30,880 bases of DNA, taken from a bacterium. GTDB lineage: Bacteria; UBA10199; 2-02-FULL-44-16; DYJF01. This document shows positions 11,327-30,880 of the stretch, one piece after another. The notes beneath the pieces are model-generated. The model was not told the origin of the DNA, searched no databases, and worked only from the letters and a program-made list of their open reading frames with translations. The stretch's first letter is position 1, and every line of letters starts with the position of its first letter. The stretch spans positions 1-30,880 of the forward strand of contig JBGSNL010000064.1 in the NCBI GenBank assembly GCA_041739675.1. The letters run 5' to 3'. Position numbers and translations under genes: made by a program.

Positions 11327-12835
11327 CTATGGTATAACTACATCGCCTGAGTAATTGGGGTCAAACACGGGATAGGCGGCGGCCAAGTCAGCGACTGTCA
11401 GAATATCTCCATTAGCAAAGCTCGTATAGACCACGTGCAGTCCGCTGTCGAAGAGGTTAGAGACGACCGAAGCGGGCGTCGAATCGACGTCCTGTTCGAA
11501 TATGCCCGTGAAGCTGGTGCCCGCACCCCCTGCGTAGAAGGTGTTGTTGGCTATTGTGGTGCTGCCGTTTCCGGCGATGAGATTGATAAGTGTCGCGATG
11601 TCACCCGAATCCGCGACTATCGTGTTGTCCACTATGTTTGCGTCGGCGAATTCAAGGTTGATCCCGGAAAGCCATGCGCCCGCGTCCCGGCTCACGCCTC
11701 CGCTTATGAAATTGTTGACGACGGTCGAGAGCTCGGCAGAGTTGTAAATCGAAAGTGCGGTTACAAGTGAGCTGCCGTCGCCCGCCGCTATCTTGTTATT
11801 TTCGATGGAGGCGAGATTATATGAAGCTGCGATATCGTGGATCGAATCGTAGCCCAGATCGACGCCGTTCGAGAGCGGAGCTGTTCCCGCCCGAACGTCA
11901 TTACCCGTCATGGTGAGATTGGCCACGGCATCCACAGTATCGGCCCATGCGTTTACCGCGATCGAGTAGAGAGTTGCCGCGCCCGCGGAAAGCTGGTTGC
12001 CGGTCAACGACGGTGCCACACTCGCCGATTTCGCCGCATGCGCCACAAGGCCAAGGACCATATCCGCAGGCTGGAGCGAGCCCGAAACAATGGCGTTGGA
12101 TTCGAATCGGGGGCTCAGACTCGATTGGTCCAGGGCCCTCGCTTCGACGGCAATGACAAGTGAAAGATCGCCGCTGTACGTGCAGGCGATATTTTCAACG
12201 GAATTGTTCGAGATGAGCGGCTGCATTATATTTGCGCCCGATGATTCAAGCGTGAGTGTCGCTCCGCCCCTGCATGTACCGCTTTCTGACGATATGACGT
12301 TGCTCGTTACAGTGGGAGAAGCATTCTTCACCGTGAAGTTTGAGATCGTCATACCCTCAACGAAACAATCGGAACCGTTCAGCGGCGCGCCGGAACTGCC
12401 GTCCATCACTAGCCGGTCCAGTGTCGTGATGTTTACTGCCGTGTCGCGGCTTCTCGTACCCGTCGCTGAATCAAACGAGCCGTAGCCGCCGAGCAGGCGT
12501 ACACCGTGATATGAAGTCGCATCACCGATGATCACTGTTTCTGCATAAGTGCCTGCGACCAGGTGAACCTCTTTCGCCCCGCTCGCCGCAACGGCCGCCG
12601 CGACGCCTTGCCCCACAGTTTTGTAAGGAGAAGCTATCGTTCCGGTGCCGGAATCGTCGCCGTCCGGTGCGACCCAAATGGCTCCGTCGTCCAGGACGGC
12701 CGCACCGTCAGTACCAGACTCTGCCGCGCTCTTGTCAGGGCCGGTGTAAAAGGAATTGTTTCCGCCTATCATTCCGCACCCGCCTGCAAAAAGCAGTGCG
12801 AACAGAAACATTGCTATGATCTTTTCTCTCTTCAT
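11327..12835 (-). CDS. Lipoprotein with DUF1565-like N-terminus and right-handed parallel beta-helix
   Basis: Lipobox FAGGC, WVAPDGDDSGTGTIASPYKTV...AGTY.E motif and repeated I..N.I beta-helix rungs. Paralog of 12981-14603. Confidence 0.8.
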   Translation of the reverse strand: MKREKIIAMFLFALLFAGGCGMIGGNNSFYTGPDKSAAESGTDGAAVLDDGAIWVAPDGDDSGTGTIASPYKTVGQGVAAAVAASGAKEVHLVAGTYAETVIIGDATSYHGVRLLGGYGSFDSATGTRSRDTAVNITTLDRLVMDGSSGAPLNGSDCFVEGMTISNFTVKNASPTVTSNVISSESGTCRGGATLTLESSGANIMQPLISNNSVENIACTYSGDLSLVIAVEARALDQSSLSPRFESNAIVSGSLQPADMVLGLVAHAAKSASVAPSLTGNQLSAGAATLYSIAVNAWADTVDAVANLTMTGNDVRAGTAPLSNGVDLGYDSIHDIAASYNLASIENNKIAAGDGSSLVTALSIYNSAELSTVVNNFISGGVSRDAGAWLSGINLEFADANIVDNTIVADSGDIATLINLIAGNGSTTIANNTFYAGGAGTSFTGIFEQDVDSTPASVVSNLFDSGLHVVYTSFANGDILTVADLAAAYPVFDPNYSGDVVIP

Positions 12836-12859
12836 ATGTCAGGAACCATCCCCATTATA

Positions 12860-12913
12860 ATGATAGCGCCATCGGCGTTTTTAGACCATTTGCTGCCTCC
12901 CCTTTTTACTGAC
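12860..12913 (-). promoter_or_regulatory. Regulon promoter 1: operator-like box plus -10
   Basis: Minus strand GTCAGTAAAAAGGGGAG (12897-12913), then TATCAT (12860-12865). Confidence 0.65.
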
Positions 12914-12930
12914 CGGATTCCCCCAAATGG

Positions 12931-12956
12931 AAAGGCCGCCATCTCTGGCGGCCTTT
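12931..12956. terminator. Bidirectional-type intrinsic terminator
   Basis: AAAGGCCGCCA-TCTC-TGGCGGCCTTT, a perfect hairpin just downstream of the 540-aa gene. Confidence 0.8.
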
Positions 12957-12980
12957 AGATAGGGGGTGAAGACCCTTTGA

Positions 12981-14603
12981 TTACATTTCATCGGCGCCTA
13001 TATCGGGTGCGGCTCCTGATGGTCTCGCGATGCCGTCGTAATCGACCGTGGGGGCCGCAGTTGCGTCCGCCATATCGACGGCGGCTGAGCCCGCGCTTAT
13101 GTGGAGATCAAGATTCGTGGGATCGACGAGCATGGATGCGCCTTCTATGTTGGCCGTGTAGGCGGGATACGCGACAACCAGATCGGCTACGGTCAGAATG
13201 TCACCCAATCCTCCGAAGTCGCTTGCGTAGACCAGGTTGAGCGAGTCGTCGAAGAGGTTGTTCTTAAGAACCGCGGGCGAAGAATCCATGGCTTCAAAAA
13301 TGCCGACGAGCGCGCCGCCCGCATTGGCGGGGTTCACGAACAGGATGTTATTTTCGATCTTTGTCGCCGCGGTCTGCTGAACCATGTCTATCATGTAGGC
13401 TGTGTCGCCCGTTTCCGCCACCAGCGTGTTGTTGATGATGTCGGCGCTGGCCGCTTCGAGTCTGATGCCCTCCTGGAACGCAAGAATCTGAGTGCTCTGG
13501 CCCGCGCTCACGAAGTTGTTTGTGAGCGAGCTCTGAGCCGTCGCTCCTGCTATCGATATGCCGGCAGAGAAGCTGCAGTTGGCTCCGCCAAAGACTTTGC
13601 TGCGCTGAATATCCGCCATCGTGAAGCTTGTCATCACGTCGGAGATCGAGTCAAAGCCGAGATCGACGCCGAAGCCGTCCACAGCTGTCCCGCCCCGTAC
13701 TTCATTGTTCAGTGCGACAAGGCTTGCGCCTGCCGTTGCCGAATCGGCCCAGATGTTCACTGCAGCCGAATAGTTGGCGGCGGTGCCCGCCGACACGGTG
13801 CTTCCCTCGAGGGCCAGCTCGATTGTCGAACTATCCATGGCGCGTCCCAATATGCCCATGGTATGCGTTGCTGCGGTCACGCCGCTGCCGCCCGTTATCT
13901 GATTTGTCCTCACCTGCGGCTTGAGCTGCGAAGTGCCCGCGCTTGAGAGCTCGAGGCCCACGACTTCGGCTATCCCGCCCACGCAACTGATGTTGTCTAT
14001 GACGTTTTCGGAAATGGAGGGTATGCTCACGACGGCGCCGGTTGTCGACAAGAGAAGCGCCGCCCTGCTGGTGCATAAAGGCGCATCGTAGGTTATCCTG
14101 TTGCTCTTTATCACTGGGGAAGCGTTGAGCGAGGATACCTGGGAGACTGCAAAGCCATCCACTATCGCCTCGGTGCCGTTAATCGGCGCGCCTGCGCTTC
14201 CGTCGATTGAAATTCTGTCGACCACGGTGAGATTCGCGACGATGTCCCGCGGACGGGTCTGAGTCACGGCATCATACGTGCCGTATCCGCCGTACAAGGC
14301 GATGCCGTAGTATCCGGCCGCGTCTCCGACGACGACGTCCTCGTGATATATCCCTGCGACCACGTAGACGCTCTCCGTTCCGCCTGAAGCGACGGCCGCG
14401 GCGACACCTTTGGCAACTGTGGCGAACGGTCTTTCAATGGAGCCGGAATTGGTGTCGAGACCTTCGGAGGCTGAGACCCAGAATTTTGCAGGGTTCTCCA
14501 CTGGCGTAGTTGTTGTAGCATCACCACCGCCCCCGCATCCTGCATAGAAGGCGACGCCGGCTGCCACTGCCACGACAACGAGGATCATTAAACGGTTCTT
14601 CAT
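12981..14603 (-). CDS. Lipoprotein with DUF1565-like N-terminus, beta-helix and choice-of-anchor-Q-like C-terminus
   Basis: Lipobox FYAGC followed by GGGG, WVSASEGLDTNSGSIERPFATV...AGIY.E, and C-terminal LHISAGSAAVD...DYDGIARP....DIGADE. Confidence 0.8.
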   Translation of the reverse strand: MKNRLMILVVVAVAAGVAFYAGCGGGGDATTTTPVENPAKFWVSASEGLDTNSGSIERPFATVAKGVAAAVASGGTESVYVVAGIYHEDVVVGDAAGYYGIALYGGYGTYDAVTQTRPRDIVANLTVVDRISIDGSAGAPINGTEAIVDGFAVSQVSSLNASPVIKSNRITYDAPLCTSRAALLLSTTGAVVSIPSISENVIDNISCVGGIAEVVGLELSSAGTSQLKPQVRTNQITGGSGVTAATHTMGILGRAMDSSTIELALEGSTVSAGTAANYSAAVNIWADSATAGASLVALNNEVRGGTAVDGFGVDLGFDSISDVMTSFTMADIQRSKVFGGANCSFSAGISIAGATAQSSLTNNFVSAGQSTQILAFQEGIRLEAASADIINNTLVAETGDTAYMIDMVQQTAATKIENNILFVNPANAGGALVGIFEAMDSSPAVLKNNLFDDSLNLVYASDFGGLGDILTVADLVVAYPAYTANIEGASMLVDPTNLDLHISAGSAAVDMADATAAPTVDYDGIARPSGAAPDIGADEM

Positions 14604-14627
14604 ATATACCTCCCAGTTCCTATCCCA

Positions 14628-14681
14628 ATTTTAAAACCATTCGCCCCTCCCCACAATTTGCTGGCTCCCCTTTATTCTGAC
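14628..14681 (-). promoter_or_regulatory. Regulon promoter 2
   Basis: Minus strand GTCAGAATAAAGGGGAG (14665-14681), then TAAAAT (14628-14633). Same spacing as promoter 1. Confidence 0.65.
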
Positions 14682-14703
14682 TAATTTCCACCTTCATCTC
14701 CGT

Positions 14704-16467
14704 CTAAAATGACCGCCTTGAGACGCGTGTTAACGACGATTGCGATCCCTCAGGACCGGTCACAATTACCCTTCTGGGAAATCTCATGACGCTGCCCACA
14801 TTTTTCTCCCACTTGGACGAGGCGGCGTTCCATGTCATGGGGCCGTATCCAAGAAGCTCAAGGTTTGCCCCGCCTCCCAATTCACTTGAAGCTTCAACCT
14901 TAAGTCTGCGTAATGTAAAGGAATAACCTGAATTGACGACGTCGATGGTCAGGTCGAAACCGTTGCAATCCTGATCGACGGCGTCGTGTTTGATCTCCGT
15001 GGCATTGGGATGTATCGATGCTTCTGTATCGTTGCAGTCAGTCTCCGTCCTGCAGACCGCATCGATAAAATATCCGTCGCTGTCGGCGTCCGCACAGTCA
15101 GGCGGCGCGACAAGCATGTCGTGTGCTCCCACGACGTCCAAAAGCCCGTAGCCATAGTTGTTGTCTTTTCCGCCTGCGCCAAGGGGGACAGCCCCGTATT
15201 TCAACGCCGATTCCAGTTCCGAAACTGTTGCCAAGGGGTCGGCGCTCAAAATCAGGGCCATCGCGCCGGCAACGTGTGCCGAGGCGAACGACGTGCCTGA
15301 AAGGTATGTGTATGAATCGGGAAATGTCCCGCCCAGGGTCAAATCGGCGGTTTTCACGTTAACTCCGGGCGCCACGATTTCGGGATAAGTCCTTGCGTTG
15401 CATGCGGACGGGCCTCGGCTGGAAAAAGAAGCGATCGTGCGCGTATCGTCGGTTGCACCGATTGCAAAACCTTCGGCGTAATTCGCGGGGCTGATGCTCG
15501 ATGCCGGGTACGGCCCCTCATTTCCCGCGCTGAAGCTGAGAACTATTCCCGCCGCCTTGAGCGCAGCAATGTCCGGCTCGAACTCCGTAACACAATCGTT
15601 CACGAATTCTCTTAAGCCCCATGAGTTGTTGACGACGTCGGGCTTGTCGTCGGTCGCCGGATTGCCGTCAGGGTCCAGAAGCCACTGAAATCCGAGATGT
15701 ATCTTACTGTATGTCGTGAAGCCCGCATCGTCGAATATCTTGACCGCTATCCATTGGGCACCGGGCGCCACGCCTATCGGCGCACCGCTCGAATCTCCGC
15801 CCACAATTATGCCCATGACGGATGTCCCGTGGCCGGCCGCATCGAAAGGAGTTGCATGTTCGCCGTTGGGGTCGAACCAGCTGTTCGCCCCGCCCCTCCA
15901 TCTCGCAGTCAGGTCCGGATGATCCACGTCAACGCCCGTGTCCATCGTCGCCACGACGACGCCGGTTCCCGTATGACCCATCGCCCAGAAATCGGTGGCC
16001 CTGATGTCGCTCAAATTCCATCCGTCGGGCGCTCCTGCTCCCCCCGCTGCAAGTGGCTGCGGCGCTGCGAGTGTGGCATCTAACCTGATGCTCTCTACGT
16101 CGGGGCGCGTTGCCAGTTCGCGGATCGTTGCCGGATCGGCTTTGAGGGCCATGCCGCCTATTATCCAGAGTGAATGAATTTCACGGACCAACCTGCTCTT
16201 GAGAAAACTTTTAACGACGCTCGCGTTTGAGCCGGTGATTTTTTTGAGGGTAACGATTACGGGCAGTTCTTCCTCTGCAGGAGTCGATTTCAATATCTCT
16301 TCAAGCTCGGGATCTATGACGCCGGCAATTTCCTGAGGTTCCCCCTGAATCGTTTCCTTAGGCGAGGATAAATCATTGACTGCGACTGCGCCGCATCCGG
16401 TGAACGCCAAAAGCAGCGCAAACACGACAATTACTTCCCCCCATTTTTTTATTCTTTGATACAACAT
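14704..16467 (-). CDS. Lipoprotein subtilisin-family (S8) serine peptidase with MopE-type putative metal-binding motif
   Basis: Lipobox AFTGC and propeptide. Catalytic residues: MDTGVD (Asp), HGTSVMG (His), AGNEG (oxyanion Asn), SGTSFA (Ser). C-terminal DADSDGY..DCND....IHP.A.E....DQDCNG. Confidence 0.9.
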   Translation of the reverse strand: MLYQRIKKWGEVIVVFALLLAFTGCGAVAVNDLSSPKETIQGEPQEIAGVIDPELEEILKSTPAEEELPVIVTLKKITGSNASVVKSFLKSRLVREIHSLWIIGGMALKADPATIRELATRPDVESIRLDATLAAPQPLAAGGAGAPDGWNLSDIRATDFWAMGHTGTGVVVATMDTGVDVDHPDLTARWRGGANSWFDPNGEHATPFDAAGHGTSVMGIIVGGDSSGAPIGVAPGAQWIAVKIFDDAGFTTYSKIHLGFQWLLDPDGNPATDDKPDVVNNSWGLREFVNDCVTEFEPDIAALKAAGIVLSFSAGNEGPYPASSISPANYAEGFAIGATDDTRTIASFSSRGPSACNARTYPEIVAPGVNVKTADLTLGGTFPDSYTYLSGTSFASAHVAGAMALILSADPLATVSELESALKYGAVPLGAGGKDNNYGYGLLDVVGAHDMLVAPPDCADADSDGYFIDAVCRTETDCNDTEASIHPNATEIKHDAVDQDCNGFDLTIDVVNSGYSFTLRRLKVEASSELGGGANLELLGYGPMTWNAASSKWEKNVGSVMRFPRRVIVTGPEGSQSSLTRVSRRSF

Positions 16468-16491: not shown

Positions 16492-16914
16492 CTATTGCAC
16501 TATGAGCTCGCCCGAGTTGAAGTCGCCGACCACAATGGCAACCTTGCTTCCGGCCTTCACATAGTGCCATGGGTTCCCGAATATCATGAAATAGCCTCTG
16601 TCTTCATAAGGCTTTGCGCCCCTGGATGTCGGCCTCAGCGCTCCAACTTTTGGCGGCGAAGCAACCATGAATTTCGCCCCTGTCTCGATGTCCAGGACAT
16701 AGGGCTTCACCTTCCCGTCGAAGAGCGGCATTGCCTTGTCGGCGTCGATGACCTTGTAACGGAAATCGAGCATGTAACCGTTGGCCGAGAGGCGGATGGC
16801 TTCGATCTTGATGCCGTAGCGGTATTCGACTCGGGACGTGTACCAGAGTGCCGCCGCCAGTCCCGCCGCAAGGAAGAGTAAGATAACCGCCAGTAGTTTA
16901 ATTCTGGTCTTCAT
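16492..16914 (-). CDS. Membrane-anchored/exported hypothetical protein
   Basis: 140 aa with an N-terminal hydrophobic helix and a beta-rich domain (GYMLDFRYKVID..KA.PL; PPKVGALR; YFMIFGNP). Starts 1 nt after the upstream stop codon. Confidence 0.8.
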   Translation of the reverse strand: MKTRIKLLAVILLFLAAGLAAALWYTSRVEYRYGIKIEAIRLSANGYMLDFRYKVIDADKAMPLFDGKVKPYVLDIETGAKFMVASPPKVGALRPTSRGAKPYEDRGYFMIFGNPWHYVKAGSKVAIVVGDFNSGELIVQ

Positions 16915-16915
16915 A

Positions 16916-18520
16916 TTACCTCATAACGCGAATCGTCACCTTCCCGGGTACGGACGTGAGCGCCGGAAGCGGAGTTCCCGTGTCGGTGATCCTGTACGTG
17001 AACGTGTCCGTTCCTATGAAATTTCTCCTGGGTGTGTACGTGATCGTGCCGTTGGCGTTCAAAACGATAGAGCCGAATCTCGGATTCGAAGCGATCGACA
17101 CCGTCGCCGTGCTCACGAGGCTGTCGACGTCCGTATCATTGGCCCTGACTGCGATTGTCTTGGCCACGTTTCTGCGCGTCGTCACCGAATCAGCCTTGGC
17201 AACTGGCGCGTCGTTGATCGGATTGATCGTTATCGTTACGAGCCCCAGACTTCCCGCCAGACCGTCGCTGGCGATCGGCCTGTACCTGAAGGTGTCTGTG
17301 CCGTTGTAGTTGAGCGCCGGCGTGTAGACGAATGAACCGTCAAGACCCAAAAGCACGGTCCCGTGGCCCGCGGCTTGCGCGAGAAGTGAAGTCATCGGGT
17401 CAAAGAGCGGATCGTTCGTGTCGTTAACCAGAACGCCGTCGACGCCGGCAAGCGTCGTGTTGAGAACGACGTCCTCATTTATCGTGTAGTCGGCGGCGAG
17501 CGTGGGATCGGGCAGCGCCACAGGCGCGCCGGATCTTAAGAACGCTAGCATGCCGCCGGGTGAAGTCAGTGCGTTGACCATGTCTAATCTTCTGTCAAAG
17601 ACGGGGTGGGTACCGCGCGGCAGGGCCGTTATCACGGCGTCCATGGTTTTCAGTGCGGCAAGCTGGGCCGTATAGAGCTGCCTTGCCTGCGTATATTGAA
17701 AACCGTCCTCCGCCACGATGCTCATGTACTTGTCCTTTATGATCGGAACGTGTGTGAGAAGACTCGCGTTGAAGAATCTCATTAGAATAGTCGCGTCGAG
17801 AACCGGATCGATCGGATGATCGACGATGGGTTCGGCCGGTGTCGTCACGACACTTCCGCTGAAGGGCATGCCGTTGATGAGAAAGTACTTGGGATTATAC
17901 GTCAGCGCGTTCGGGAATGCCGCGGTTCCATATGTCCCGTTCACGACGGCCGCGTGCAATGCGGGATCAATTTCGCTGTAGAACATGATCGCTTCATTGT
18001 CGTAGAGGACGCCCGTGTAGGCCTCCCCTGCTGCGGTATCCTTTTTGACGCCGCCGTAGAGACCCATCTGCACCTGCACCTGGACGTGACTTCCGCTGTG
18101 GTAGATGTATGAGCCGGGTCTGAAGTTGTTCCAGGTATAGACGCCTGTTGCGCCGGGTGCCACTTCAGTCGTGAATGACGATACCCTCATCCTGCCTTGT
18201 GGATCGGCAAATTTGACGGGCGTGACTCCCGCAATCTGTCCGGGGATGACGATGGAAACCGGCACGGCGAGATTGTTCGTGAGGTTTATCGTCAGAGTCG
18301 GGTCGCCGACCGGCACCGTTAGTATCGGTCCCGGCACGGAGACGACCGCGTCGGTTGTGAGGCCGAAACCCCAGACCGTCACCGACTGCCCGTCCGGCAT
18401 GGCAAGAGTGGTGTCATCCGCCTTGAGATCGTAGACGACGGCGAAGGAGGAGGCGGAGAGGATGCACAGTGTGCCCGCCACGGCCAGAAACTGCGTTAGT
18501 AATTTAAGCGTGAGTTTCAT
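16916..18520 (-). CDS. Multicopper-oxidase-like protein C (two cupredoxin domains, Cu ligands largely lost) with two Ig/cadherin-like (Big_9) domains
   Basis: Sec signal, PGPILTV, PGSYIYHSG..QMGLYG and YFLING. No HxH/HCH motifs. C-terminal NDTD/YTP..N..G.D.F.Y repeats. RBS AAGGAGG. Confidence 0.85.
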   Translation of the reverse strand: MKLTLKLLTQFLAVAGTLCILSASSFAVVYDLKADDTTLAMPDGQSVTVWGFGLTTDAVVSVPGPILTVPVGDPTLTINLTNNLAVPVSIVIPGQIAGVTPVKFADPQGRMRVSSFTTEVAPGATGVYTWNNFRPGSYIYHSGSHVQVQVQMGLYGGVKKDTAAGEAYTGVLYDNEAIMFYSEIDPALHAAVVNGTYGTAAFPNALTYNPKYFLINGMPFSGSVVTTPAEPIVDHPIDPVLDATILMRFFNASLLTHVPIIKDKYMSIVAEDGFQYTQARQLYTAQLAALKTMDAVITALPRGTHPVFDRRLDMVNALTSPGGMLAFLRSGAPVALPDPTLAADYTINEDVVLNTTLAGVDGVLVNDTNDPLFDPMTSLLAQAAGHGTVLLGLDGSFVYTPALNYNGTDTFRYRPIASDGLAGSLGLVTITINPINDAPVAKADSVTTRRNVAKTIAVRANDTDVDSLVSTATVSIASNPRFGSIVLNANGTITYTPRRNFIGTDTFTYRITDTGTPLPALTSVPGKVTIRVMR

Positions 18521-18565: not shown

Positions 18566-19954
18566 CTACATATCCACGATTGGTACAGACGGCGGCAGAA
18601 CCATCATCATAGTCATGAGACCGCCGGGGAATATGTCCCAGTTTGTCAGCTCTTTTTCAGTGTGGGAGTGCCACATGTACACGTAACCTGCATCGGGGTT
18701 GAGTCCGCCCTGAAGCGGCGGAAGCAGCGCCGATTTTCCGAGGAACGGTGTGCCGGGATAGAATCCGCCGAACGTGCTGTCACCCTTTTCCGGTAAAACC
18801 ACGGGGAAAGGCTTGCAGTGATCGGCTGCGTATTCGTTTGGTTCCAGCGCCGGCGGTCCGTCCAGAATGCCGTTGCCGTTATAATCGTTGTCCTCTGGTC
18901 CGGGGAAATTGCCGGCCGGATCCGCATCATAGTCGCAGTGGCCGTAGGCGTCCCAGCCCAGCCCCTCGCCTGTCCACGACCAGATTGCATCGGTTGTTTC
19001 CCCGGGCGTCGTCTGGATCGTGAATACATGATAGGCCAGATCACCGAGACCGGGTGCGGTCTCAAGCATTCTCCCGTCTTTGGCAATGACCAGCGCATGG
19101 TTTCCGTGATGGTGGAAAGGATGAAGGTCCCTTCCTCCGCCGATCACTCGCATGAGAACCCTGTCACCGGGATGGGCCAGCGGCATTGAATTGTATGGTT
19201 GCGTCGGAAGCCACGCCACCATCCCTGGAAGCATCGTGTCGGGAGCGTTTCTTCCGTTTATGAACCAGTAATATGCAAAATAGCTGCTCAAGAGATTCGT
19301 GCTCTGCAGGCCTGCAAGACCTACTCTTCTGACAGTATCATGAATTCTGGGGTCCATCTCAGTAAGGAGGAACAGATATTCACGGTCTTGCGCATAGGCG
19401 GAGTTAGCGTTGCCGTATGCTGTTGGGGCTGCGGGATTGAAACCCAGAGGGCGGACGATCAGTGCACCCACAAGACCCATGTCCACTTCCACTTCAGGCC
19501 TCGTGCCGCTGTGGTACAAATACGTTCCGGGTTCGGTTGCCGTGAATGTGTATGTCACTGTTGTGACTCCGTCCGGCGGGGCCTCTTGAGTCAAAAGCCC
19601 TGCAACACCGCCTGCCGCCGCGACCACTTGGCCCGGGAACACTATGGATACGTTGGGGGCAGCGGCGCCGTTTGCTGCAGCAGGAAGCTCGCTTTTAAGA
19701 TTGACGGTAATCGCCTGACCCTGCGTCACGATGAGCGTAGGTCCGGGATATTGCACCATGCCCGTGGCGTCGTCGGCGTATCCCCAGAAAAAGTGGGAGC
19801 CGGCGTCACCCGTGCTTAAGTAGCCCGCCTTCGCCGTGAGGTTGAAGACGGGGCCCGATATCCCCTGGATCGTCGCGTGAGCAGTGGCGGCCACGCACAT
19901 GAGGAGGATGGCTACCGCGGCACCTCCAAATGTTTTTGAAAACAATTTCTTCAT
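18566..19954 (-). CDS. Multicopper-oxidase-like protein B (T2/T3 His motifs only in domain 2, no T1 Cys)
   Basis: Sec signal, YPGPTLIV and PGTYLYHSG. Domain 2 has HPFHHHG and WHSH. ATG at 19954 with GGAGG RBS preferred over the GTG at 19975. Confidence 0.88.
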   Translation of the reverse strand: MKKLFSKTFGGAAVAILLMCVAATAHATIQGISGPVFNLTAKAGYLSTGDAGSHFFWGYADDATGMVQYPGPTLIVTQGQAITVNLKSELPAAANGAAAPNVSIVFPGQVVAAAGGVAGLLTQEAPPDGVTTVTYTFTATEPGTYLYHSGTRPEVEVDMGLVGALIVRPLGFNPAAPTAYGNANSAYAQDREYLFLLTEMDPRIHDTVRRVGLAGLQSTNLLSSYFAYYWFINGRNAPDTMLPGMVAWLPTQPYNSMPLAHPGDRVLMRVIGGGRDLHPFHHHGNHALVIAKDGRMLETAPGLGDLAYHVFTIQTTPGETTDAIWSWTGEGLGWDAYGHCDYDADPAGNFPGPEDNDYNGNGILDGPPALEPNEYAADHCKPFPVVLPEKGDSTFGGFYPGTPFLGKSALLPPLQGGLNPDAGYVYMWHSHTEKELTNWDIFPGGLMTMMMVLPPSVPIVDM

Positions 19955-24100: not shown

Positions 24101-26478
24101 AGTATGACCTGTTTTTTGTCGCAAAGAGGTCTTGACTGTCCGGCAAAGGCGCCAGGCACTCCCGGGAAGAGATCGAGCTCAGCCGGGACGGTGTGCATGT
24201 CGCCCACGCATGGAGGCGGGAAGAGCATCGGGTTGGGCATGAATTCGTCGCCGAAGTCGACGTTCTTGTCCTCTTCCTTCACAAGCGAATATCCCCTCGG
24301 CAGAACTGCCTCGACTATGTACGTGTCATTGGGAAGGCCCATGACCTCTGCGCTCCCTGAATCGATGCCGCCGGGGAAATAGGACGTGAAGCCGTAGCCG
24401 CCGTCGAAGACGCCTGGGCGGACCTGATTGAAGACCCACATACTGTCGAAGCAGTCGACCGCGTTGCCGTGCGACATGAAGTCAGCACCGACGCAGCCGG
24501 TCGGCAAATTATCGTCCCAGCTGTCCGTTGTGACGGATGCTATCGCATCGCCGTAATCAAGACGGCCGTTGCGGTTCCTGTCCGTATCTTCAGAACCGGG
24601 GAAGTTGCCGAACGGATACTGATCGGCATCGGCGAGTGTCACGGAACCGTTGCCATTCAAATCGTCGATGACGCTGTCTGCATCCGAATCCATGTACAGA
24701 TTGATAGGAACGCGCGGGATGCCGGGCTGCCACGGTTCGGGGGCATTGTAGCGCGGATCGTTTTCCGCGCGCGTCGTGTCATAATATACGACGCCGGTGA
24801 CTCCGCCGTTTTCGCCCATGGCGTACGCGGTTTTTCCCCACTCGATCACGCTGTACTGGCCGATTGTTCCTATGAAAGATTGCAGCAGGTATGCCGAGCC
24901 CTCCATTCCCGTGGGGTCAAATTCAGTTCGGAAAGGAAGCCCTGCGTTATCGGGCTGGTTCTGCGGGAAGAGGAAGCCTCCGAATGTGCAGTCTCCTCCC
25001 GGAAACACATCCTGAAACGCGCTGCAATCGCTGGCTGCAAAAACGTCGCCGCCGTTATCGACAACGGCTGTGAAACCCGTTGCCTTGAAGCGCGCGAAAT
25101 CGACTTCGGAAATTAAGAAATTGAAGAACGGAAACACTTCGTCGAACGGCAGATAACCTTCAAGATCGGTGGTTGATGTCTGATAAACGGTTCCATCTCT
25201 GAAGCGGTGATTGACGGTGACGTTTGGAATACCGACCTCGCCCGGATCCCTGAAGCCGTTCGCATTGTCATCCTGAAAGACGTAATATCTCATGCCCGTG
25301 AACCACGGAAATACAGGTACGTCGCCGATATTTACTACGCCGCCGCCGTCGGGCACGGTGACTGTGGCAAAATGTATGATGAGATCGTTGTGTTCATCCC
25401 ATACGACCAGCTGCCACAAACCGGGAGGCAGCTGCGGTATCGTGAAGGTGCCGTCTTCATTTGCCATCGCTGCATAGACGCCGAAGCCGCCTATCTCGTT
25501 CACACCTATCCACGGTATCGTGTAATCGAAAGGCGCGCCGGGAGTGAAGACTGTCTGATCGGGGCTGCCAAGGCGCAATGTCACGATTCGGCCGGTGACA
25601 TCGGCCGCAACTTGCGGGGCGACAGGAGCGGGAATGGAGTTAAACGCCCTCACGAAACCCATGAACACGTGAGGCAGCACCGGACCGAATTCCTGCAGAA
25701 ACGCCGGCTCGTTCGACTTGACCCACACGTCTATACCCTTTGTTCCTTCTATGGTCGTTGTCTGGCTCCAGCCCAGGCCCGCGGGGGGTTTTACAAAAAT
25801 CGTATATTTGCCCGGGGCAAGATTTTTGAAAACAGCTTCGCCATTGACGTCGGTCAAAAGGTAACCCAGTCCCATCATTATTATGTCGCCGTTGGCATCA
25901 TATGTTGTTCCCAAAGGATTGCCGAACGTGTCTGACATCATCTGTCCGCCGGAGATTCCGTACCTTCCGCCGGCATCAACGAGCGTGACGGTGAATCCCT
26001 CAAGCCCTGCCTCCTGCGGGAGGTCGGGCGTGTTGTTTATGGGCATCTTGTCTTCAAATACGAGGACCGAAATTTGCGCGGTCGGCAGCGGGAGCTTGTT
26101 GACGACTATCCGCACGGAGCTTTTCCCCGCGGCAAGGGGCGCACCGCCTATGGAGTAGCCCGCCTTGGGAAGCACAGAGACGAAATATTTTTTTGAAGGG
26201 TTCAGTGCGAGTCTCGTGGGCGGGCTCGTCTCGTCGCCCGTCGCCAGGATGGGCATGTAGCTGGTGTGGAAGCGCGCGGAGAGCGGCACCGGTTCGATGA
26301 CGCCAGGCACGACGTTGTGCGTCGCGTCCTCCTCAACGGTCCAGTAGTATCTGGCAACCGCCGTGCCGTCGGAGCCCACTACATTAATACTGAGCGCGCC
26401 GGCATTTGTGGCGAGAAGTGAGGCAACCAAAAAAGCCGCGGCCAACACCAGATGCCTCAAGATGTTTTGAGTTCTCAT
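21184..26478 (-). CDS. Giant secreted multidomain protein (~1764 aa): SdrD-B/prealbumin-like repeats, IPT/TIG, parallel beta-helix, choice-of-anchor-Q-like and Big_9 domains
   Basis: ATG 26478 follows an AAGGAG RBS and opens a signal peptide (MRTQNILRHLVLAAAFLVASLLATNAGA). Motifs include VF.D...NG..DPGE.GIP.VTV, SIQAAIDAA..GD.I.VPPG.Y.E, GSPAIDTG...DIGADE and a C-terminal NDTDSDG domain. Confidence 0.88.
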   Translation of the reverse strand: MRTQNILRHLVLAAAFLVASLLATNAGALSINVVGSDGTAVARYYWTVEEDATHNVVPGVIEPVPLSARFHTSYMPILATGDETSPPTRLALNPSKKYFVSVLPKAGYSIGGAPLAAGKSSVRIVVNKLPLPTAQISVLVFEDKMPINNTPDLPQEAGLEGFTVTLVDAGGRYGISGGQMMSDTFGNPLGTTYDANGDIIMMGLGYLLTDVNGEAVFKNLAPGKYTIFVKPPAGLGWSQTTTIEGTKGIDVWVKSNEPAFLQEFGPVLPHVFMGFVRAFNSIPAPVAPQVAADVTGRIVTLRLGSPDQTVFTPGAPFDYTIPWIGVNEIGGFGVYAAMANEDGTFTIPQLPPGLWQLVVWDEHNDLIIHFATVTVPDGGGVVNIGDVPVFPWFTGMRYYVFQDDNANGFRDPGEVGIPNVTVNHRFRDGTVYQTSTTDLEGYLPFDEVFPFFNFLISEVDFARFKATGFTAVVDNGGDVFAASDCSAFQDVFPGGDCTFGGFLFPQNQPDNAGLPFRTEFDPTGMEGSAYLLQSFIGTIGQYSVIEWGKTAYAMGENGGVTGVVYYDTTRAENDPRYNAPEPWQPGIPRVPINLYMDSDADSVIDDLNGNGSVTLADADQYPFGNFPGSEDTDRNRNGRLDYGDAIASVTTDSWDDNLPTGCVGADFMSHGNAVDCFDSMWVFNQVRPGVFDGGYGFTSYFPGGIDSGSAEVMGLPNDTYIVEAVLPRGYSLVKEEDKNVDFGDEFMPNPMLFPPPCVGDMHTVPAELDLFPGVPGAFAGQSRPLCDKKQVILNEAQNSAADFYTFTKAPVAGHIIGLCLDDLSNEFDPTSPNFGEKYAPPFLPIAVKDWTGREIARTYTDEWGKYNLLVPSTYTINTPSPSGVSASMLLISMNDPGPIPNPADSTKMIDDPFFNPHYIQVAYTLQFMPGATTYLDTPVFPAVAYPAQDQFPADCEPIDKTPVIYSVDGTTGGPYSSGTAQNVTIRSVGSVFVENPLYDGPNGTNPQKTVKRDYGFGNIRGSVSINGAALENVSWSNGTIRGKIAAGTTTGQLVVTRGDSLRSTIAGVTFTIGGTSPRYVSPGGSIQAAIDAANAGDLILVPPGIYRELVVMWKPVRLQGYGEGSTRINGAKSPPEKVQQWRDRIEALVTLDPLYLLPGQTIPAGGIDGVNPFGGEGMVVTVLAREGEFGVGGIPNARIDGFYITGGDFASGLFVNGRAHYLQITNNRFSFNQGTYGGAIRSGNPTLLNLGDYVPAGNDHLKIAHNRITQNRGVDFAGGGISLYSGSDNYEISDSFICGNFSDGSGGGIGHLGLSNGGLIKDNYIVFNQSFDQGTIQAGGGIFIAGAAPIAPATLTHGSGSVKIVNNLIQGNMAGAGDGGGIRLASVNGEDVAASPDDMTPWYSVDILNNNIVNNLTGLAGAGISLQDAAKVNIIHNTITNNDSTATSGEAFAGGLFDPANLNESLPWPAGIAARAHTAALAGAIGAVDPLFATFSNPHLENDIIWHNRSFYFVNQVAGIRLLPDIGLGDPAVYNDLQVLGTGAADVMNPMNCILTDATGYDASNVAADPAFMSEYTNGARNKILNMALASSIEVQPAFDEGGNFIDVRFGPLTLTGNYHIELGSPAIDTGDVLFDAAFAELVLDFDRQTRPNAATQVDIGADEQYPPNVPPLARYDSVSTKKNTAKIINVLANDTDSDGTIPLNSVTVVQAPRFGTATVNAATGRITYTPKRNFVGADYFYYSVWDNLLATSNWARVTVRVVR

Positions 26479-26526: not shown

Positions 26527-26580
26527 ATGATACAGCCTCATCTCTTTAAGAAGAATTGCCTCACTCCCTTTTTTTCTGAT
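26527..26580 (-). promoter_or_regulatory. Regulon promoter 3 (giant protein / MCO operon)
   Basis: Minus strand ATCAGAAAAAAAGGGAG (26564-26580), then TATCAT (26527-26532). Confidence 0.65.
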
Positions 26581-26596: not shown

Positions 26597-26761
26597 TTAG
26601 CAAAACTCCGTGGGTTCTTCGGAAGGGCCGTAACCGGTCTCTTCCTCGTCGGAAGATGCGAAGAGTTGACACGCAGATTTGTCAACGCTGCCGAAACCGG
26701 CCGAAAAGACGGCACCGATTACCGCCGCGATTACTATATAAATGAAGAAACGTTGCTTCAT
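26597..26761 (-). CDS. Small exported peptide, 54 aa (not in ORF track)
   Basis: My translation: MKQRFFIYIVIAAVIGAVFSAGFGSVDKSACQLFASSDEEETGYGPSEEPTEFC*. Upstream AAGGAGG and a signal-peptide-like N-terminus. Confidence 0.6.
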   Translation of the reverse strand: MKQRFFIYIVIAAVIGAVFSAGFGSVDKSACQLFASSDEEETGYGPSEEPTEFC

Positions 26762-26779: not shown

Positions 26780-26923
26780 TTAAAACAGCAGGTTTATGAA
26801 GTGATGTTGTTTGAAATCCATACATTTCGCGAGGAAGTGCAGGTACTTTATGAACCCGAACGCACCTATGAACATCACCGGATGACATATTATGTGTCTT
26901 GTTTTTATGACTCCCAGCACCAT
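26780..26923 (-). CDS. Small His/Cys-containing protein, 47 aa (not in ORF track)
   Basis: My translation: MVLGVIKTRHIICHPVMFIGAFGFIKYLHFLAKCMDFKQHHFINLLF*. GAGGTG RBS, and it lies directly behind regulon promoter 4. Confidence 0.6.
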   Translation of the reverse strand: MVLGVIKTRHIICHPVMFIGAFGFIKYLHFLAKCMDFKQHHFINLLF

Positions 26924-26972: not shown

Positions 26973-27026
26973 ATGATACAGCGCGCTCCGATTTTACGGG
27001 ATTGCGCCGCTCCACTTTTTTCTACC
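26973..27026 (-). promoter_or_regulatory. Regulon promoter 4 (small ORFs)
   Basis: Minus strand GGTAGAAAAAAGTGGAG (27010-27026), then TATCAT (26973-26978). Confidence 0.65.
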
Positions 27027-27083: not shown

Positions 27084-27491
27084 CTACTTGCTTTTGCGGT
27101 GGCCGTTTGTGGCCTTGCGGATTGCCGCCAGGAGGGAACTTATGCTGATGGGTTTGGACATTACATGGTGGGCCGTTCCGAGGATTTTGCACTCGTCGTC
27201 ATCATCGCAACTGTTCTCCTTGAAATTATCTATGACGTCGGTCTGGCTTGAGCAGACGATGACGTGAAGGTCTTTTTTGTTCTCCTTAATCTCTTTCAAC
27301 AGGTCGGTGCCGGAGAGACCCGGAAGCTTCAGATCGAGAACAACGGCGTCATAGTCGGCCTCGTCGATCTTCTCAGCGGCATCCAAGCCGTCGTAGGAGG
27401 TCTCGACGTTATAGCCCTCGTAGCGGAGGGCGTCGGCGACTTCTTCGCAGAACTCCTTGTCGTCGTCGACTATGAGGACCTTTTTCTTCAT
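27084..27491 (-). CDS. Single-domain response regulator (receiver)
   Basis: VLIVDDD, VLDLKLPG (phospho-Asp), CSS and SKP motifs. GAGGAG RBS. Confidence 0.92.
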   Translation of the reverse strand: MKKKVLIVDDDKEFCEEVADALRYEGYNVETSYDGLDAAEKIDEADYDAVVLDLKLPGLSGTDLLKEIKENKKDLHVIVCSSQTDVIDNFKENSCDDDDECKILGTAHHVMSKPISISSLLAAIRKATNGHRKSK

Positions 27492-27514: not shown

Positions 27515-27569
27515 ATGATACATGAAAGACGCACCTTTCTTATATGGCTTATCTCCACTTTTTTCTGCC
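27515..27569 (-). promoter_or_regulatory. Regulon promoter 5
   Basis: Minus strand GGCAGAAAAAAGTGGAG (27553-27569), then TATCAT (27515-27520). Confidence 0.62.
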
Positions 27570-27600
27570 ATTTATTCACATTTCTAATTTTTTCGCTTTT

Positions 27601-27996
27601 TTACGGCCGGTTCATCGCGGATTTGACCGCCTTGAGGAGCTTCGCCATCTCGAACGGCTTGGAAAGAACGCCGTCGGCGAGTCTCAAAAGGTCGTTTCTC
27701 TTGGCCAACGCCCCGTTATCGCTTTTTATGACGTCGCCGTCGATGGGCATCCCCGTGACCGCGATGATATGCACCTGTTTTTTCATCTCCCTCACGCCCT
27801 TCAATATGTCGAGGCCGTTCATGCCGGGAAGCCTCACGTCCAGAAGCACCAGATCGTAATTGTTATCCCTTATGTGAGCATAGCCCTCTAGGCCGTCATT
27901 GACCACACTCACATCATAGCCCTCGTCACGAAGTGCCTCGGATATCTCGGCGCACATCTCTAGATCGTCGTCGACCAGAAGGATAGTGTTTCTCAT
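27601..27996 (-). CDS. Single-domain response regulator (receiver)
   Basis: ILLVDDD, LLDVRLPG, VTG and SKPF motifs. ATGA-coupled to the kinase. Confidence 0.93.
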   Translation of the reverse strand: MRNTILLVDDDLEMCAEISEALRDEGYDVSVVNDGLEGYAHIRDNNYDLVLLDVRLPGMNGLDILKGVREMKKQVHIIAVTGMPIDGDVIKSDNGALAKRNDLLRLADGVLSKPFEMAKLLKAVKSAMNRP

Positions 27997-30245
27997 ATCG
28001 CACCTCTCTCTATGGGCAAAGACAACCTCACGATTGTCCCCACGCCCACTTCGCTGTCGATCTCAAGCCTGCCGCCGTGCATGGCCACGAGCTCCGAGCA
28101 TATCGTGAGCCCCAGGCCCGTTCCCCTCGATTTCGTCGTGTAGAAAGGCTCGAAGATCCTTCCGATATCCTCTTTGCGTATCCCGGCGCCGTTATCCTTT
28201 ATCACAATATCGACAAATCCGCCGCTGTCCCTGGAAGCCGTGACCTCTATTGTGCCCCCTTCGTTGGGCAGAGCCTGAAATGCGTTGCCGATGATATTGT
28301 TGAAAACCTCTCTCAACTGCAGTTGGTCGGCCTCGATGACCGTGCTTCTCAGAATGTCGTATTTCTTGTCGACGGCCGCTTTCTTCTCTCTGAAAATCGC
28401 CGAAGATGTGCCTATGCTCTCGTCCAGGACCTTGTCGATCCGTGTCTTTTCAAAATTGGGCTTCTTGATCTTCGAATAGAAAAGGAGATTGTTGATGATG
28501 AGGTTGCTCTCGGCGACCTTCTTTTCTATGCGCTCGAAATGCTTATCGAGCTCGGCAGACACCTTTTTTCTCCTCATGTTCTCGACGGCCAGCTGGATCA
28601 CGCCCAGCGGGTTTCTGAGCTCGTGGGCCACGGTGGAGGCCAGAGTGCCTATGTCGGAGAGGCGCTTCACCGTCATAAGCTCGTCGGTCCGCTGTTTGAC
28701 CCTCCGCTCGAGCTCCTCGTAAAACTTCTTCAGCTCCAGCTCCGCCTCTTTGCGCTCGGTGATGTCGTGTGTTATGCCGAACCCCCCCATGAGCTGGCCG
28801 TTCTCGTCGAACTCAAGATAAGCCTTCTCACGAACCCACCTGATCTCATCAGCAACAACTATTCTATGCTCGATGTCGTAGGGTTCGCCCGACAGACCTG
28901 CTTTCCATTTCTTGTCCACGTATTCGCGATCGTCGGGATGAATCGTCGAAAGAAACGTCTCGTAGGCCAGGGGCGTTCCCTTCGGGATGCCGAATATCCT
29001 GTGGTTCTCGTCGGACCACGTAAGCTCATTTTTGTGAATGTTCAGTCTCCAGCTCCCGACTCCGCCCACGGTCTGCGCGCGATCCAGGTCCTCGCGGCTG
29101 GCCCTGAGTTCGTTCTCCGCCTTTTTCCGCTCTGTTATGTCGTGCGCCACGTGAACCGAGCCGATCCCCTTGCCTTCACTGTCAAGCAGTGCCACGGTGG
29201 TTACGAGAAAATCCCCACCCAAACGCTCCTCATGAATCTCAACCCCATGTTCTTTTCCGTCGGCAATTGTCAACAAATGCGGACAAAACTGTGGAGGCGA
29301 TTCCATGCCGTGCACGACTTTGTAGCATGTCTGCCCGATGCAGTTATCCGGCGTGCAATGCATTCGGTCGGCCATCGATTTGTTCACACGCAAGATGCGG
29401 TGATTATTGTCCAGAATCGCGATAAGATCGGGCACGCTGTCGAACGTGCGTTCCCATTCTTCTTTTGCGCGTTTCAGCTCGGCAGTTCGCTCTTCCACAC
29501 GGGCTTCGAGAGTGGCGAGCATCTCCTGCAACTCCTCTTCGGAGCGCTTTCTGTCCGTGATATCTATGCCCATTTCCATGATGAGAGGCGAGCCGTCGGC
29601 GTCCTTGAAAGGATAGTCGAAGATGTCATAATTGCGGCTGTCGGGGCCCTTCCATTCCCAGTGATGGGATGTGCCGGTTTCCATGGGTTTGTATGTCTCG
29701 CAATTTTCGCAGGGCTCCGTCCGCTTGAACAGGTATTCATAGCAAATCTTGCCTTCACAGTCTCCAAAACGCTCCCTGAAGAACCTGTTCGCAAAAAAGA
29801 ACCGGTAGTCCGGCGTCAAGAGGATGACATAAGCGGGCAGCATCTCAAGGACATCGTTGAACCGCTTCTTCTCAAATTTTAAATAGTCGCTGGTCCGGCG
29901 GAACATTCCGCCCACCCAGCTCATGAAAATCCCCATGCCGGTGAACAGTCCGAGACCTACGATATCGGCGATACCGTGGCTTGCGGGTGTCCCCTGCGCT
30001 GGGAGGATCCAAAAGACGGCGAGGATTGCCGAAGTGGCGGTGGTTGCCAGGCCCGGCCCCATGCCGGCGAAGAGGGCTGCGATCATGACGACAGGGTAGA
30101 AAGTGACGAAGTGAGGGAGCTCGCCGCCAGCGAGGCGGATGACCCCGATGCGGAAGAGCAAGGCGACCACGGGCGCGACCACGGCAAAACCATAGCGTGC
30201 CAACCAGTGGTCCCTTAGCCCCATGACTATTCTTTTTCCCGTCAT
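27993..30245 (-). CDS. Sensor histidine kinase: DUF4118-like TM domain, three PAS/PAC domains, HisKA and HATPase
   Basis: Four N-terminal TM helices, DITD/ERK PAC ends, AHELRNPL, NIIGNAFQA, DNGAGI, FEPFYTTK and GTGLGL. Confidence 0.95.
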   Translation of the reverse strand: MTGKRIVMGLRDHWLARYGFAVVAPVVALLFRIGVIRLAGGELPHFVTFYPVVMIAALFAGMGPGLATTATSAILAVFWILPAQGTPASHGIADIVGLGLFTGMGIFMSWVGGMFRRTSDYLKFEKKRFNDVLEMLPAYVILLTPDYRFFFANRFFRERFGDCEGKICYEYLFKRTEPCENCETYKPMETGTSHHWEWKGPDSRNYDIFDYPFKDADGSPLIMEMGIDITDRKRSEEELQEMLATLEARVEERTAELKRAKEEWERTFDSVPDLIAILDNNHRILRVNKSMADRMHCTPDNCIGQTCYKVVHGMESPPQFCPHLLTIADGKEHGVEIHEERLGGDFLVTTVALLDSEGKGIGSVHVAHDITERKKAENELRASREDLDRAQTVGGVGSWRLNIHKNELTWSDENHRIFGIPKGTPLAYETFLSTIHPDDREYVDKKWKAGLSGEPYDIEHRIVVADEIRWVREKAYLEFDENGQLMGGFGITHDITERKEAELELKKFYEELERRVKQRTDELMTVKRLSDIGTLASTVAHELRNPLGVIQLAVENMRRKKVSAELDKHFERIEKKVAESNLIINNLLFYSKIKKPNFEKTRIDKVLDESIGTSSAIFREKKAAVDKKYDILRSTVIEADQLQLREVFNNIIGNAFQALPNEGGTIEVTASRDSGGFVDIVIKDNGAGIRKEDIGRIFEPFYTTKSRGTGLGLTICSELVAMHGGRLEIDSEVGVGTIVRLSLPIERGAI

Positions 30246-30880
30246 TTTTGAGTTTTTTTTCTGTATTCCGACGGCGTCATTCCCTCGTGTTTTTTGAACG
30301 CCCTTATGAAGGACTCGACATTCTGATAACCCAGATTATCGGAGATCTGGTTCACGTTGTAGCCGGTTGTGGCGAGCCACCCCTTGGCTTTTTCTATTTT
30401 GATCTCCGATTTGTAATCGGAAAACCCCTTGCCTGTTTCCTGTCTGAATATTCTGCTCAAATATTTGGGCGAAAGCCCCACCGCTTTCGCCGCATCCTCA
30501 AGGCCGATCTTCTTGTGAAAATTTCTCTCGGCAAAGCGCTTCACGTGCTCAATCTTGCCTTTGATGTCCGCAGCCGAGAGATCGGGCTCCACCCCTGTGT
30601 CCTTGAGAAGGCGCAGTATAATGGAGTTCAGTCTGTCTAAGTTGATGGGTTTTTGGATGTAATCGTCGGCATGGCCCTTGAGCGCCGCGATCGCCACGTT
30701 TTCCGAAGAAAAACCTGTCGATATGATGATGCCGACTTTGGGCGCGATCTTTTTGAGCTCGACTAACGCATCTGTGCCCGACATGCCGGGCATCTTTACA
30801 TCCAGTATGATGAGATCCACTTCGTTGGGTTTCTTTAGGATGTCGAGCGCGGTCTGAGCGTCGCCCGCTTCCATCACGTC
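30242..30880 (-). CDS. Response regulator with receiver plus AraC-type HTH (5' end outside window)
   Basis: ILDVKMPG and YIQKP receiver motifs. AraC motifs LEDAAKAVGLSPKYLSRIF...ISDNLGY.N...F.RAFKK..GMTPSEYR. Confidence 0.93.
   Translation of the reverse strand, partial: DVMEAGDAQTALDILKKPNEVDLIILDVKMPGMSGTDALVELKKIAPKVGIIISTGFSSENVAIAALKGHADDYIQKPINLDRLNSIILRLLKDTGVEPDLSAADIKGKIEHVKRFAERNFHKKIGLEDAAKAVGLSPKYLSRIFRQETGKGFSDYKSEIKIEKAKGWLATTGYNVNQISDNLGYQNVESFIRAFKKHEGMTPSEYRKKTQK

Follow-up and report, generated by a model that had tools for sequence, protein, structure and literature searches.

What kind of enzyme is encoded by three adjacent cupredoxin genes that lie beside the gene for a giant secreted protein? 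The question is raised by a 30,880-nucleotide stretch of bacterial DNA (contig JBGSNL010000064.1 of GenBank assembly GCA_041739675.1; hereafter the window), equivalent to contig C83 in a genome of 1.91 Mb and 94.6% completeness. An original prediction, made from the sequence alone, described a self-contained run of co-oriented genes (hereafter the island) comprising a regulatory module, two small open reading frames (ORFs), the giant, three multicopper oxidase paralogues (A, B and C), a 140-amino-acid (aa) exported protein (p140), a lipoprotein subtilase of the S8 family and two further lipoproteins, and proposed that they form a co-regulated copper-oxidase system at the cell surface. All of these genes are present, on the minus strand, where they had been placed. 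The island is real and complete, and its core is a known but uncharacterised gene cluster. Judged by its copper ligands, no single chain among A, B and C is a complete oxidase. New here are also a 14-bp box standing before five island genes and, in a related genome, the exchange of the oxidase for another behind an orthologous regulator.

Copper ligands and gene order of the oxidase operon

Subunits A (395 aa; 19980–21167), B (462 aa; 18566–19954, most likely starting at the ATG at 19954) and C (534 aa; 16916–18520, with two Big_9/cadherin-like domains besides its cupredoxin domains) are paralogous two-domain cupredoxin proteins (A against B, E = 2.5e-29; B against C by hhalign, E = 1.2e-52). 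A profile search of the PDB returned the two-domain oxidases 3g5w and 2zwn as the closest solved relatives of A and B; for C, these two entries ranked second and fourth. A structure model of B (pLDDT 87.8) retrieved 2zwn and 3g5w as its top Foldseek matches, and no six-domain enzyme stood among the PDB and fold matches listed for the three proteins.

We then followed the copper ligands through sets of homologues that collapse to 82 (A), 67 (B) and 55 (C) sequences at 90% identity, in which the minimum pairwise identities were 41, 38 and 28% and the mean identities 60, 56 and 45%, C being the least conserved paralogue. Domain 1 of A contains a type-1 (T1) copper site (H129, C175, H182 and M187) and four histidines of a trinuclear cluster (TNC; H132, H134, H174 and H176), each present in 88/88 homologues. 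In domain 2 of A, the complementary HxH, cysteine and distal-histidine positions are empty (0 of 88–89 sequences), a histidine standing only in a neighbouring column in 4/88. The other four TNC histidines lie in domain 2 of B (H281, H283, H429 and H431): H278, H281 and H283 were found in 65/65, and H429-S430-H431 in 62/62, of the sequences with residues at these columns, the remaining rows of the 69-row alignment being gapped there and mostly truncated. Ser430 replaces the T1 cysteine of this domain (62/62). Domain 1 of B has no HxH motif, no cysteine and, in 70 sequences, no histidine at the complementary positions, retaining only a variable histidine (39/70). C possesses neither a T1 nor a TNC ligand set, only variable single histidines (32/57 and 36/54). 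Genome samples from an order and from a phylum added 21 further A sequences, which retain both motifs; among the B sequences of these samples, two that fell outside the search pattern still have HSH and two are cut by contig ends.

The ligands of A, B and C sum to exactly one T1 site and one TNC. A homotrimer of A, B or C alone could not form the cluster. The description of the paralogues as three oxidases in their own right therefore falls, none of them having a full ligand set, and we rejected three independent enzymes on the same ground; the idea of a composite copper oxidase gains from the complementarity of A and B. The TNC is very probably shared by these two subunits, and a mixed A-B-C ring with one T1 and one trinuclear site appears likely from the alignments. 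Members of the family bear generic multicopper-oxidase names though no single chain has the full oxidase ligands, and such a split would explain any failure of single-gene expression.

Two further features of the alignments deserve mention. Domain 2 of A, B and C alike opens with a conserved D-x-x-x-H motif (D233/H237 in A, D201/H205 in B and D185/H189 in C), which may mark an additional site on the pseudo-threefold axis. B also has invariant H278, E433 and E435 where its T1 site is vestigial.

Gene order was surveyed in 109 loci, most of them chosen by likeness to A and some near-duplicates, each count being limited to loci with sufficient sequence. A is followed by B in 88/88 loci and C comes next in 69/69. 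The giant precedes A in 70/77; in the seven exceptions it lies downstream fused to C (four), lies further upstream (two) or could not be placed (one). The p140 gene is present in 47/51 loci, and S8 in 36/49 loci with at least 8 kb downstream (not found in 13/49). The giant is fused to A in 5/111 loci and to C in 5/111, and no fusion among A, B and C (A-B, B-C or A-C) occurred in the 111. The predicted coupling of the oxidase to a giant platform thereby acquires a genetic link, in 10/111 loci, and the expected co-conservation of the giant, A, B, C, p140 and, in the fraction given, S8 is evident from these counts.

A less biased check came from genome samples. The same 6/301 genomes of an order-level sample hold both A and B. 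B occurs in 17/301 genomes sampled from the phylum of a Thermodesulfobacteriota genome, with A directly upstream in 16/16 newly fetched loci and in the centre genome's own locus (L006). Among 8000 scored proteins, 4919 belong to the family at E ≤ 1e-20, patchily distributed across several phyla. The cluster occurs in Paraburkholderia, Ralstonia and Cupriavidus, and the Cupriavidus and Paraburkholderia loci have the same layout as the island; the record of Cupriavidus CH34 is without annotation in the cluster region. An SCO gene was found in 20/111 loci, and a gene for a cytochrome c/periplasmic-binding protein likewise in 20/111.

Several loci have further neighbours or variants. Type II secretion-like genes, in several cases with a lytic transglycosylase, stand beside the cluster at L088, L027, L034, L037 and L048; at L027, T2SSE and T2SSF were confirmed by Pfam and pseudopilin-like ORFs were noted by eye. 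A di-haem cytochrome c peroxidase gene (CCP/MauG family) adjoins the cluster at L001, L006 and L041. Two giant-like genes are in tandem upstream of A at L024 and L032, and at L107, L031 and L080, where A and B are intact, frameshifts or assembly errors split the giant or C into a number of ORFs.

The giant of the island (1764 aa, starting at the ATG at 26478; 21184–26478) is named in the Atlas only by its SdrD-B and beta-helix domains. Pfam and NCBIfam profiles describe SdrD-B/CnaB/transthyretin-like and IPT beta-sandwiches, followed by a right-handed beta-helix, a choice-of-anchor Q region and Big_9. A model of residues 28–1075 (pLDDT 81.7, pTM 0.79) consists of beta-sandwiches. In a VIA search its best match was UafA (Z = 12.2; root-mean-square deviation 2.4 over 104 residues); matches were to single beta-sandwiches only, and no catalytic fold was matched in these first 1048 mature residues, large parts of which were barely covered. 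Across 48 full-length homologues the beta-helix is conserved and conserved histidines are few (H270 and H1311). The model fits a structural partner role, and a catalytic role may also be possible.

A promoter box and an exchanged oxidase

The region had been predicted to be co-regulated. In support, we identified a 14-bp motif, AGWAWAAAGKGGAG, with five copies in the window (one with a mismatch) versus 0.02 expected. All five boxes are intergenic and on the coding strand, upstream of receiver 2 (box 1, 27553–27566), a 47-aa ORF (box 2, 27010–27023), the giant (box 3, the mismatched copy, 26564–26577, heading the giant-A-B-C-p140-S8 operon), lipoprotein 1 (box 4, 14665–14678) and lipoprotein 2 (box 5, 12897–12910). 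Each lies 31–32 nt (32 nt in box 1) before a −10-like hexamer, TATCAT or TAAAAT. In leave-one-out scans of the whole genome, each held-out box outranked every non-site, by margins of 0.1–12 bits. A generic sigma-70 scan gave no excess over shuffled sequences (9 vs 11.1), and the five box-linked sites were not in its list.

Co-regulation in the sense of a single transcription unit does not stand, however. A terminator-like hairpin with a U tail lies between the two lipoprotein genes (12931–12956; z = −3.7), and on account of this internal hairpin and the five promoter-like sites we rejected a single 19.5-kb transcript. In its transcription the island is likely to be a multi-unit regulon.

The boxes are accompanied by a four-gene module, encoding an AraC-type response regulator (Pfam PF00072 receiver and PF12833 AraC helix-turn-helix; 30242–30880), a membrane PAS histidine kinase (DUF4118, three PAS, HisKA and HATPase domains; 27993–30245) and two stand-alone receivers (receiver 1, 27601–27996; receiver 2, 27084–27491). 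One of 60 related genomes, G009, holds the same order of regulator, kinase, receiver and receiver; its regulator is an orthologue of 62–63% identity, the kinase part is 49% identical, and the window's genes are the best matches in their genome for all four G009 genes. Subunit A was not found in G009. There the module is followed by a single-chain multicopper oxidase with four copper motifs and a fibronectin type III (Fn3) domain, split by a frameshift, which belongs to a large family including Geobacter, Geomonas and Oryzomonas proteins and, likened by domain content alone, has the architecture of OmpB. In this locus (L142:10542-19120, contig C21 of G009) the frameshifted oxidase also carries InlB-like repeats and is followed by a small lipoprotein gene, and rubrerythrin- and ferritin-like genes are close by.

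When the matrix built from the window was applied to G009, a site of 15 bits before the oxidase ranked second in 23 kb and first on its strand. A relaxed pattern, written after the G009 sites had been seen, matched exactly two places there, one ahead of the second receiver and one ahead of the oxidase, each with a 31-nt spacer. The relaxed pattern had no match in 200 shuffles or in homologous loci totalling 1.33 Mb, and two extra matches in the island's own genome. In five relatives, G009 included, counts of the 14-bp pattern with one mismatch stayed at background level, and homologous loci that have other regulators did not conserve the box (best score 20.5). Taken with the orthologous regulator, the G009 boxes support, in one genome, a box-binding activator dedicated to an extracellular oxidase, and the box is probably bound by the island's AraC-type regulator. 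Box and oxidase swap together would offer a handle on the inducing signal and a functional tie to OmpB/MofA-like enzymes.

At homologous loci, two-component genes lie within 3 kb upstream in 23/38 cases. The 31 regulators scanned comprised 14 of LuxR type, 2 of NtrC type, 1 of OmpR type and 14 with receivers only; none was of AraC type.

Assembly, substrate and alternative readings

The closest described counterpart of the operon is in the iron oxidiser Sideroxydans lithotrophicus ES-1, for which one report lists a tandem of three genes for extracellular oxidases, accompanied by a mofC-like gene and one for a copper chaperone, and proposes no function (He et al. 2017, PMC5566968). A second report gives higher abundance of Slit_1812-1818 in late magnetite cultures than with Fe(II)-citrate; in late fresh magnetite the differences, read as log2, were 5.5 (Slit_1815), 7.7 (Slit_1816), 3.5 (Slit_1818) and 4.0 (the receiver next to the cluster; Keffer et al. 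2025, PMC12016527). Peptides in its supplement, matched by eye, connect Slit_1817 (HPFHFHGNHAR) with B, Slit_1818 (FGGMMTEIR) with A, Slit_1816 (2873 aa) with C plus the giant, and Slit_1815 (YMIFGNPGR) with p140. The ES-1 cluster, adjoined by a receiver and a kinase, is the same system as the island: both have three tandem cupredoxin genes, an adhesin-like giant part and a small exported protein. In the island, however, C and the giant are separate genes with the giant first, and S8 and two lipoproteins are present. The ES-1 cluster includes SCO and a cytochrome, whereas neither SCO (SCO1/SenC) nor a MofC-like cytochrome was found in the island or elsewhere in the 94.6% complete genome. In the parts of the ES-1 papers available, Slit_1817 and Slit_1818 are each treated as having oxidase motifs, with no split ligand set or heterotrimer; a literature search, mostly excluding subscription papers, returned no description of a split or heteromeric enzyme.

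By sequence and, for B, by fold, A and B best match the type C two-domain oxidases, namely the Nitrosomonas europaea blue copper oxidase (3g5w) and a metagenomic laccase (2zwn). According to a study of two-domain oxidases, the cluster forms where domain 1 of a protomer meets domain 2 of its neighbour, type C enzymes have T1 copper in domain 1, and two-domain oxidases can act as slow, broad laccases (PMC13151041). The island shares the T1 site in domain 1 (in A only), a probable interdomain cluster of neighbouring chains and a non-cysteine residue in the HxH of domain 2. In type C enzymes, however, every chain has all ligands, including eight TNC histidines, and the homotrimer has three active sites; in the island, the ligands are spread over two genes and a third paralogue has neither set. 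A likeness also exists to MnxG-type oxidases and ceruloplasmin, metal-ion oxidases with three two-domain units and one trinuclear cluster. In bacterial six-domain oxidases, domain 2 holds the single mononuclear site and the single cluster lies where domains 2 and 3 meet (PMC3600357), in function the nearest plan to the one proposed here. One cluster per six domains is common to both; six-domain enzymes are single chains with T1 in even-numbered domains, in contrast to three chains with T1 in domain 1 of A, and we regard the comparison as an analogy, not close kinship. OmpB (Geobacter GSU1394) and MofA (Leptothrix) are, like the island's enzyme, predicted extracellular oxidases with adhesion domains. 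Per the available text, OmpB has four copper motifs and Fn3, OmpB/MofA clusters include SCO and a MofC-like cytochrome, and these single chains with all motifs are non-homologous to the ES-1 trio (PMC5566968). No island protein combines four copper motifs and Fn3 in one chain.

From the observed ligand distribution, gene order, fusions, insertion site and repeated promoter box, we infer a ring. A, B and C would be exported unfolded by Sec, loaded with copper outside and assembled outside the cytoplasm into a three-membered ring with one T1 copper and one O2-reducing trinuclear cluster. Domain 1 of A would face domain 2 of B to form that cluster, domain 1 of B would face domain 2 of C, and domain 1 of C would face domain 2 of A, so that C closes the ring. 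C would tether the ring through its Ig domains, the giant would hold it, and exit from the cell may proceed through the host type II secretion system, of which gspD/E/F/G/J are encoded. The AraC-type regulator would activate the five promoters through the shared box. At the cell surface, the ring would act on Fe(II) or Mn(II), more likely as a protective measure by which reduced metal and O2 are cleared at an oxic-anoxic boundary. Such a ring would correspond to a six-domain oxidase, MnxG for instance, left in separate chains.

The host encodes cytochrome bd, a flavodiiron-type protein and rubrerythrin; neither haem-copper oxidase nor FeFe hydrogenase was found in its 94.6% complete genome. 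Such a gene content suggests that the host lives at low oxygen. With neither a haem-copper oxidase nor cytochrome and SCO partners found, the oxidase would more likely protect the cell than conserve energy through respiration. The genome scan showed two ORFs with at least two CXXCH motifs; its only clear multihaem protein was a six-haem cytochrome c whose N-terminus resembles that of a lipoprotein (G000:C5:3127-4386).

As a whole, a mixed A-B-C ring on the giant partner outside the cytoplasm, with Fe(II) or Mn(II) as its probable substrate at the cell surface, is the reading we favour by a narrow degree; its least certain part, the metal-ion substrate, is put forward tentatively, at a little under even likelihood. 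Joint action is supported by the ES-1 homologues and the adjacent receiver, which rise together in late magnetite cultures in the available part of PMC12016527, and metal oxidation by the SCO and cytochrome partners at some loci, as in the OmpB/MofA clusters described in the accessible part of PMC5566968. The same split enzyme could instead be laccase-like, acting on phenolics or surface polymers presented by the beta-helix (matrix cross-linking, or humic or lignin fragments). We consider this unlikely: the conserved beta-helix of the giant, the slow, broad laccase activity possible in two-domain oxidases and the occurrence in Paraburkholderia, Ralstonia and Cupriavidus all agree with it, but the only expression data link the cluster to magnetite cultures, the partner genes are those of OmpB/MofA clusters, and the part of the giant that was modelled matched no catalytic fold. 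Alternatively, A and B by themselves might be the catalytic part, at a different stoichiometry (a dimer of A and B, A2B, or a ring that the giant closes), leaving C as a tether or assembly factor only. The missing ligand sets and low conservation of C and its five fusions to the giant would suit such a role, yet C keeps both cupredoxin domains and its invariable place after B, and the D-x-x-x-H motif common to A, B and C fits a pseudo-threefold arrangement, so that we rate this possibility as quite unlikely.

Two other functions appear poorer candidates than the mixed ring oxidising metal ions. Copper nitrite reductases have T1 copper in domain 1 and a type-2 site only, without type-3 histidine pairs. 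An electron-transfer or nitrogen-oxide enzyme working with a cytochrome, like these reductases or like OmpB, which has been linked to Fe(III)-oxide reduction, could account for the position of the T1 site, for the frequency of nitrite reductases among the PDB matches and for the 17/301 genomes of the Thermodesulfobacteriota phylum sample. It is nevertheless improbable: all eight TNC histidines are invariant, the type-3 histidines in A and B among them, unlike in NirK; the NirK profile TIGR02376 scored 18.6–29.9 against a cut-off of 296; and the cytochrome partner was not found in this genome. Multicopper oxidases often serve copper detoxification, and a heavy-metal efflux-like pair was seen by eye near 3 loci, but a cuprous oxidase like CueO or CopA/PcoA is highly improbable here. 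No Tat motif or Met-rich insert was seen, the regulators are of AraC, LuxR or NtrC types with one OmpR type among the 31 scanned, and no copper-exporting ATPase scored over the cut-off in the host genome.

A number of observations weigh against the favoured ring and its regulation. For every family member the biochemistry of the split enzyme is predicted from sequence, no conserved acidic pocket was mapped for the proposed metal substrate, and the conserved beta-helix of the giant could equally point to a polymer substrate. With no copper ATPase over the cut-off and no SCO, copper delivery is without explanation. In PMC12016527, Slit_1816 was not up in the early fresh-magnetite comparison, and late-only induction in ES-1 is also compatible with attachment, starvation or the stationary phase. 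Because the two lipoprotein genes are duplicates, the five boxes do not count as independent, and their margins go down to 0.1 bit; those in G009 match only partly (15 bits vs 32–38), and the relaxed pattern was post hoc.

We regard it as evenly balanced whether the family is a widespread new class, an obligate one-site heterotrimer on the type C plan, docked on a partner of 1700 residues and interchangeable with OmpB/MofA-type oxidases behind the same regulator. If so, an asymmetric one-site heterotrimer would join the models of six-domain oxidase origin, as a present-day, unfused parallel to the transition between homotrimers of two-domain chains and six-domain enzymes; the island and OmpB/MofA-type systems would do the same mineral-surface job; and the uncharacterised magnetite-induced cluster of a model iron oxidiser would become a testable enzyme.

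Boundaries and accessory genes of the island

The gene of the AraC-type regulator is cut at the window edge (30880) and continues on contig C78, which overlaps the window end by exactly 54 nt and holds the start of the gene (C78:12834). The end of C78 has a best match to the ompA gene of relatives (73%), followed by the first 43 codons of the regulator. With the regulator start and ompA placed on C78, the island extends from the regulator to the terminator at 11283–11312, nothing is hidden beyond the window edge and the cassette is complete; the overlap led us to reject missing genes beyond the edge. An ompA-family gene is directly upstream of recG in four relatives (G002–G005), and in a fifth (G001) recG is at a contig end. 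The island is an insertion between the ompA-family gene and recG. Subunit A was found in 0/60 relatives, which makes a lineage-specific insertion likely; the GC content of the island, 55.9%, is close to the 54.3% of the flank. This insertion site and the completion on C78 bear out the description of the system as self-contained, and the terminator before recG (z = −3.5) is real. The short spacing claimed from 26478 to 14704 was also accurate, the gaps measuring 16, 25 (4 if counted from a GTG start of B), 45, 1 and 24 nt. In relatives, secreted proteins of 1500–1770 aa precede the ompA-recG pair at the same site (L144:218-10115, L145:4249-9552 and L147:6289-10872), a position that, from these cases, often hosts large surface proteins.

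Sec or lipoprotein signals were judged by eye at the N-termini of the exported proteins, and no exported island protein has a Tat motif. p140 (16492–16914) matched no Pfam, NCBIfam, PDB or named Atlas family and has no conserved metal ligands in its alignment; many homologues have a lipobox-like GC motif. The lipoprotein subtilase S8 (14704–16467) has an intact triad (D176/H213/S393), a lipobox and a PF11617 motif. The original prediction made it a putative maturation factor; it was missing among the genes found at 13/49 loci with at least 8 kb downstream.

Other proposed parts of the system turned out to be local: the lipoproteins, the small ORFs and the AraC-type regulator are additions that are not conserved in homologous loci. 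Lipoprotein 1 (12981–14603) is lineage-restricted and likely a beta-helix protein of choice-of-anchor Q type; lipoprotein 2 (11327–12835) is its paralogue (42% identical) and lacks the C-terminal anchor-Q segment. Their designation as beta-helix proteins is backed by the sequence pattern and by a distant relative with a Beta_helix match, but not by a direct Pfam match. Only 4 close homologues were present among 8000 candidates, and no full-length match in homologous A-B-C loci; on these grounds they were rejected as conserved subunits. Distant relatives occur in 6/60 related genomes, in which A was not found, and two of the four close homologues may come from genomes with A homologues, a hint of linkage in a narrow lineage. 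Both lipoproteins look like surface proteins of the host that the regulon recruited.

The 47-aa hydrophobic ORF (26780–26923) is likely a real gene: it matches no Pfam family and was not found in homologous loci, and it has a paralogue on contig C6 (39% identity, E = 3e-8). That paralogue (G000:C6:72984) stands alone, without a promoter box. The 54-aa ORF (26597–26761) has a signal-like N-terminus and, by eye, a ribosome-binding site; its gene status is uncertain, with no Pfam match and no homologue in its own genome or in homologous loci. Beyond the island, a squalene-hopene cyclase gene (window 5697–7706; TIGR01507 above the cut-off) adjoins lipA, a START-domain gene and recG in this 1.9-Mb genome.

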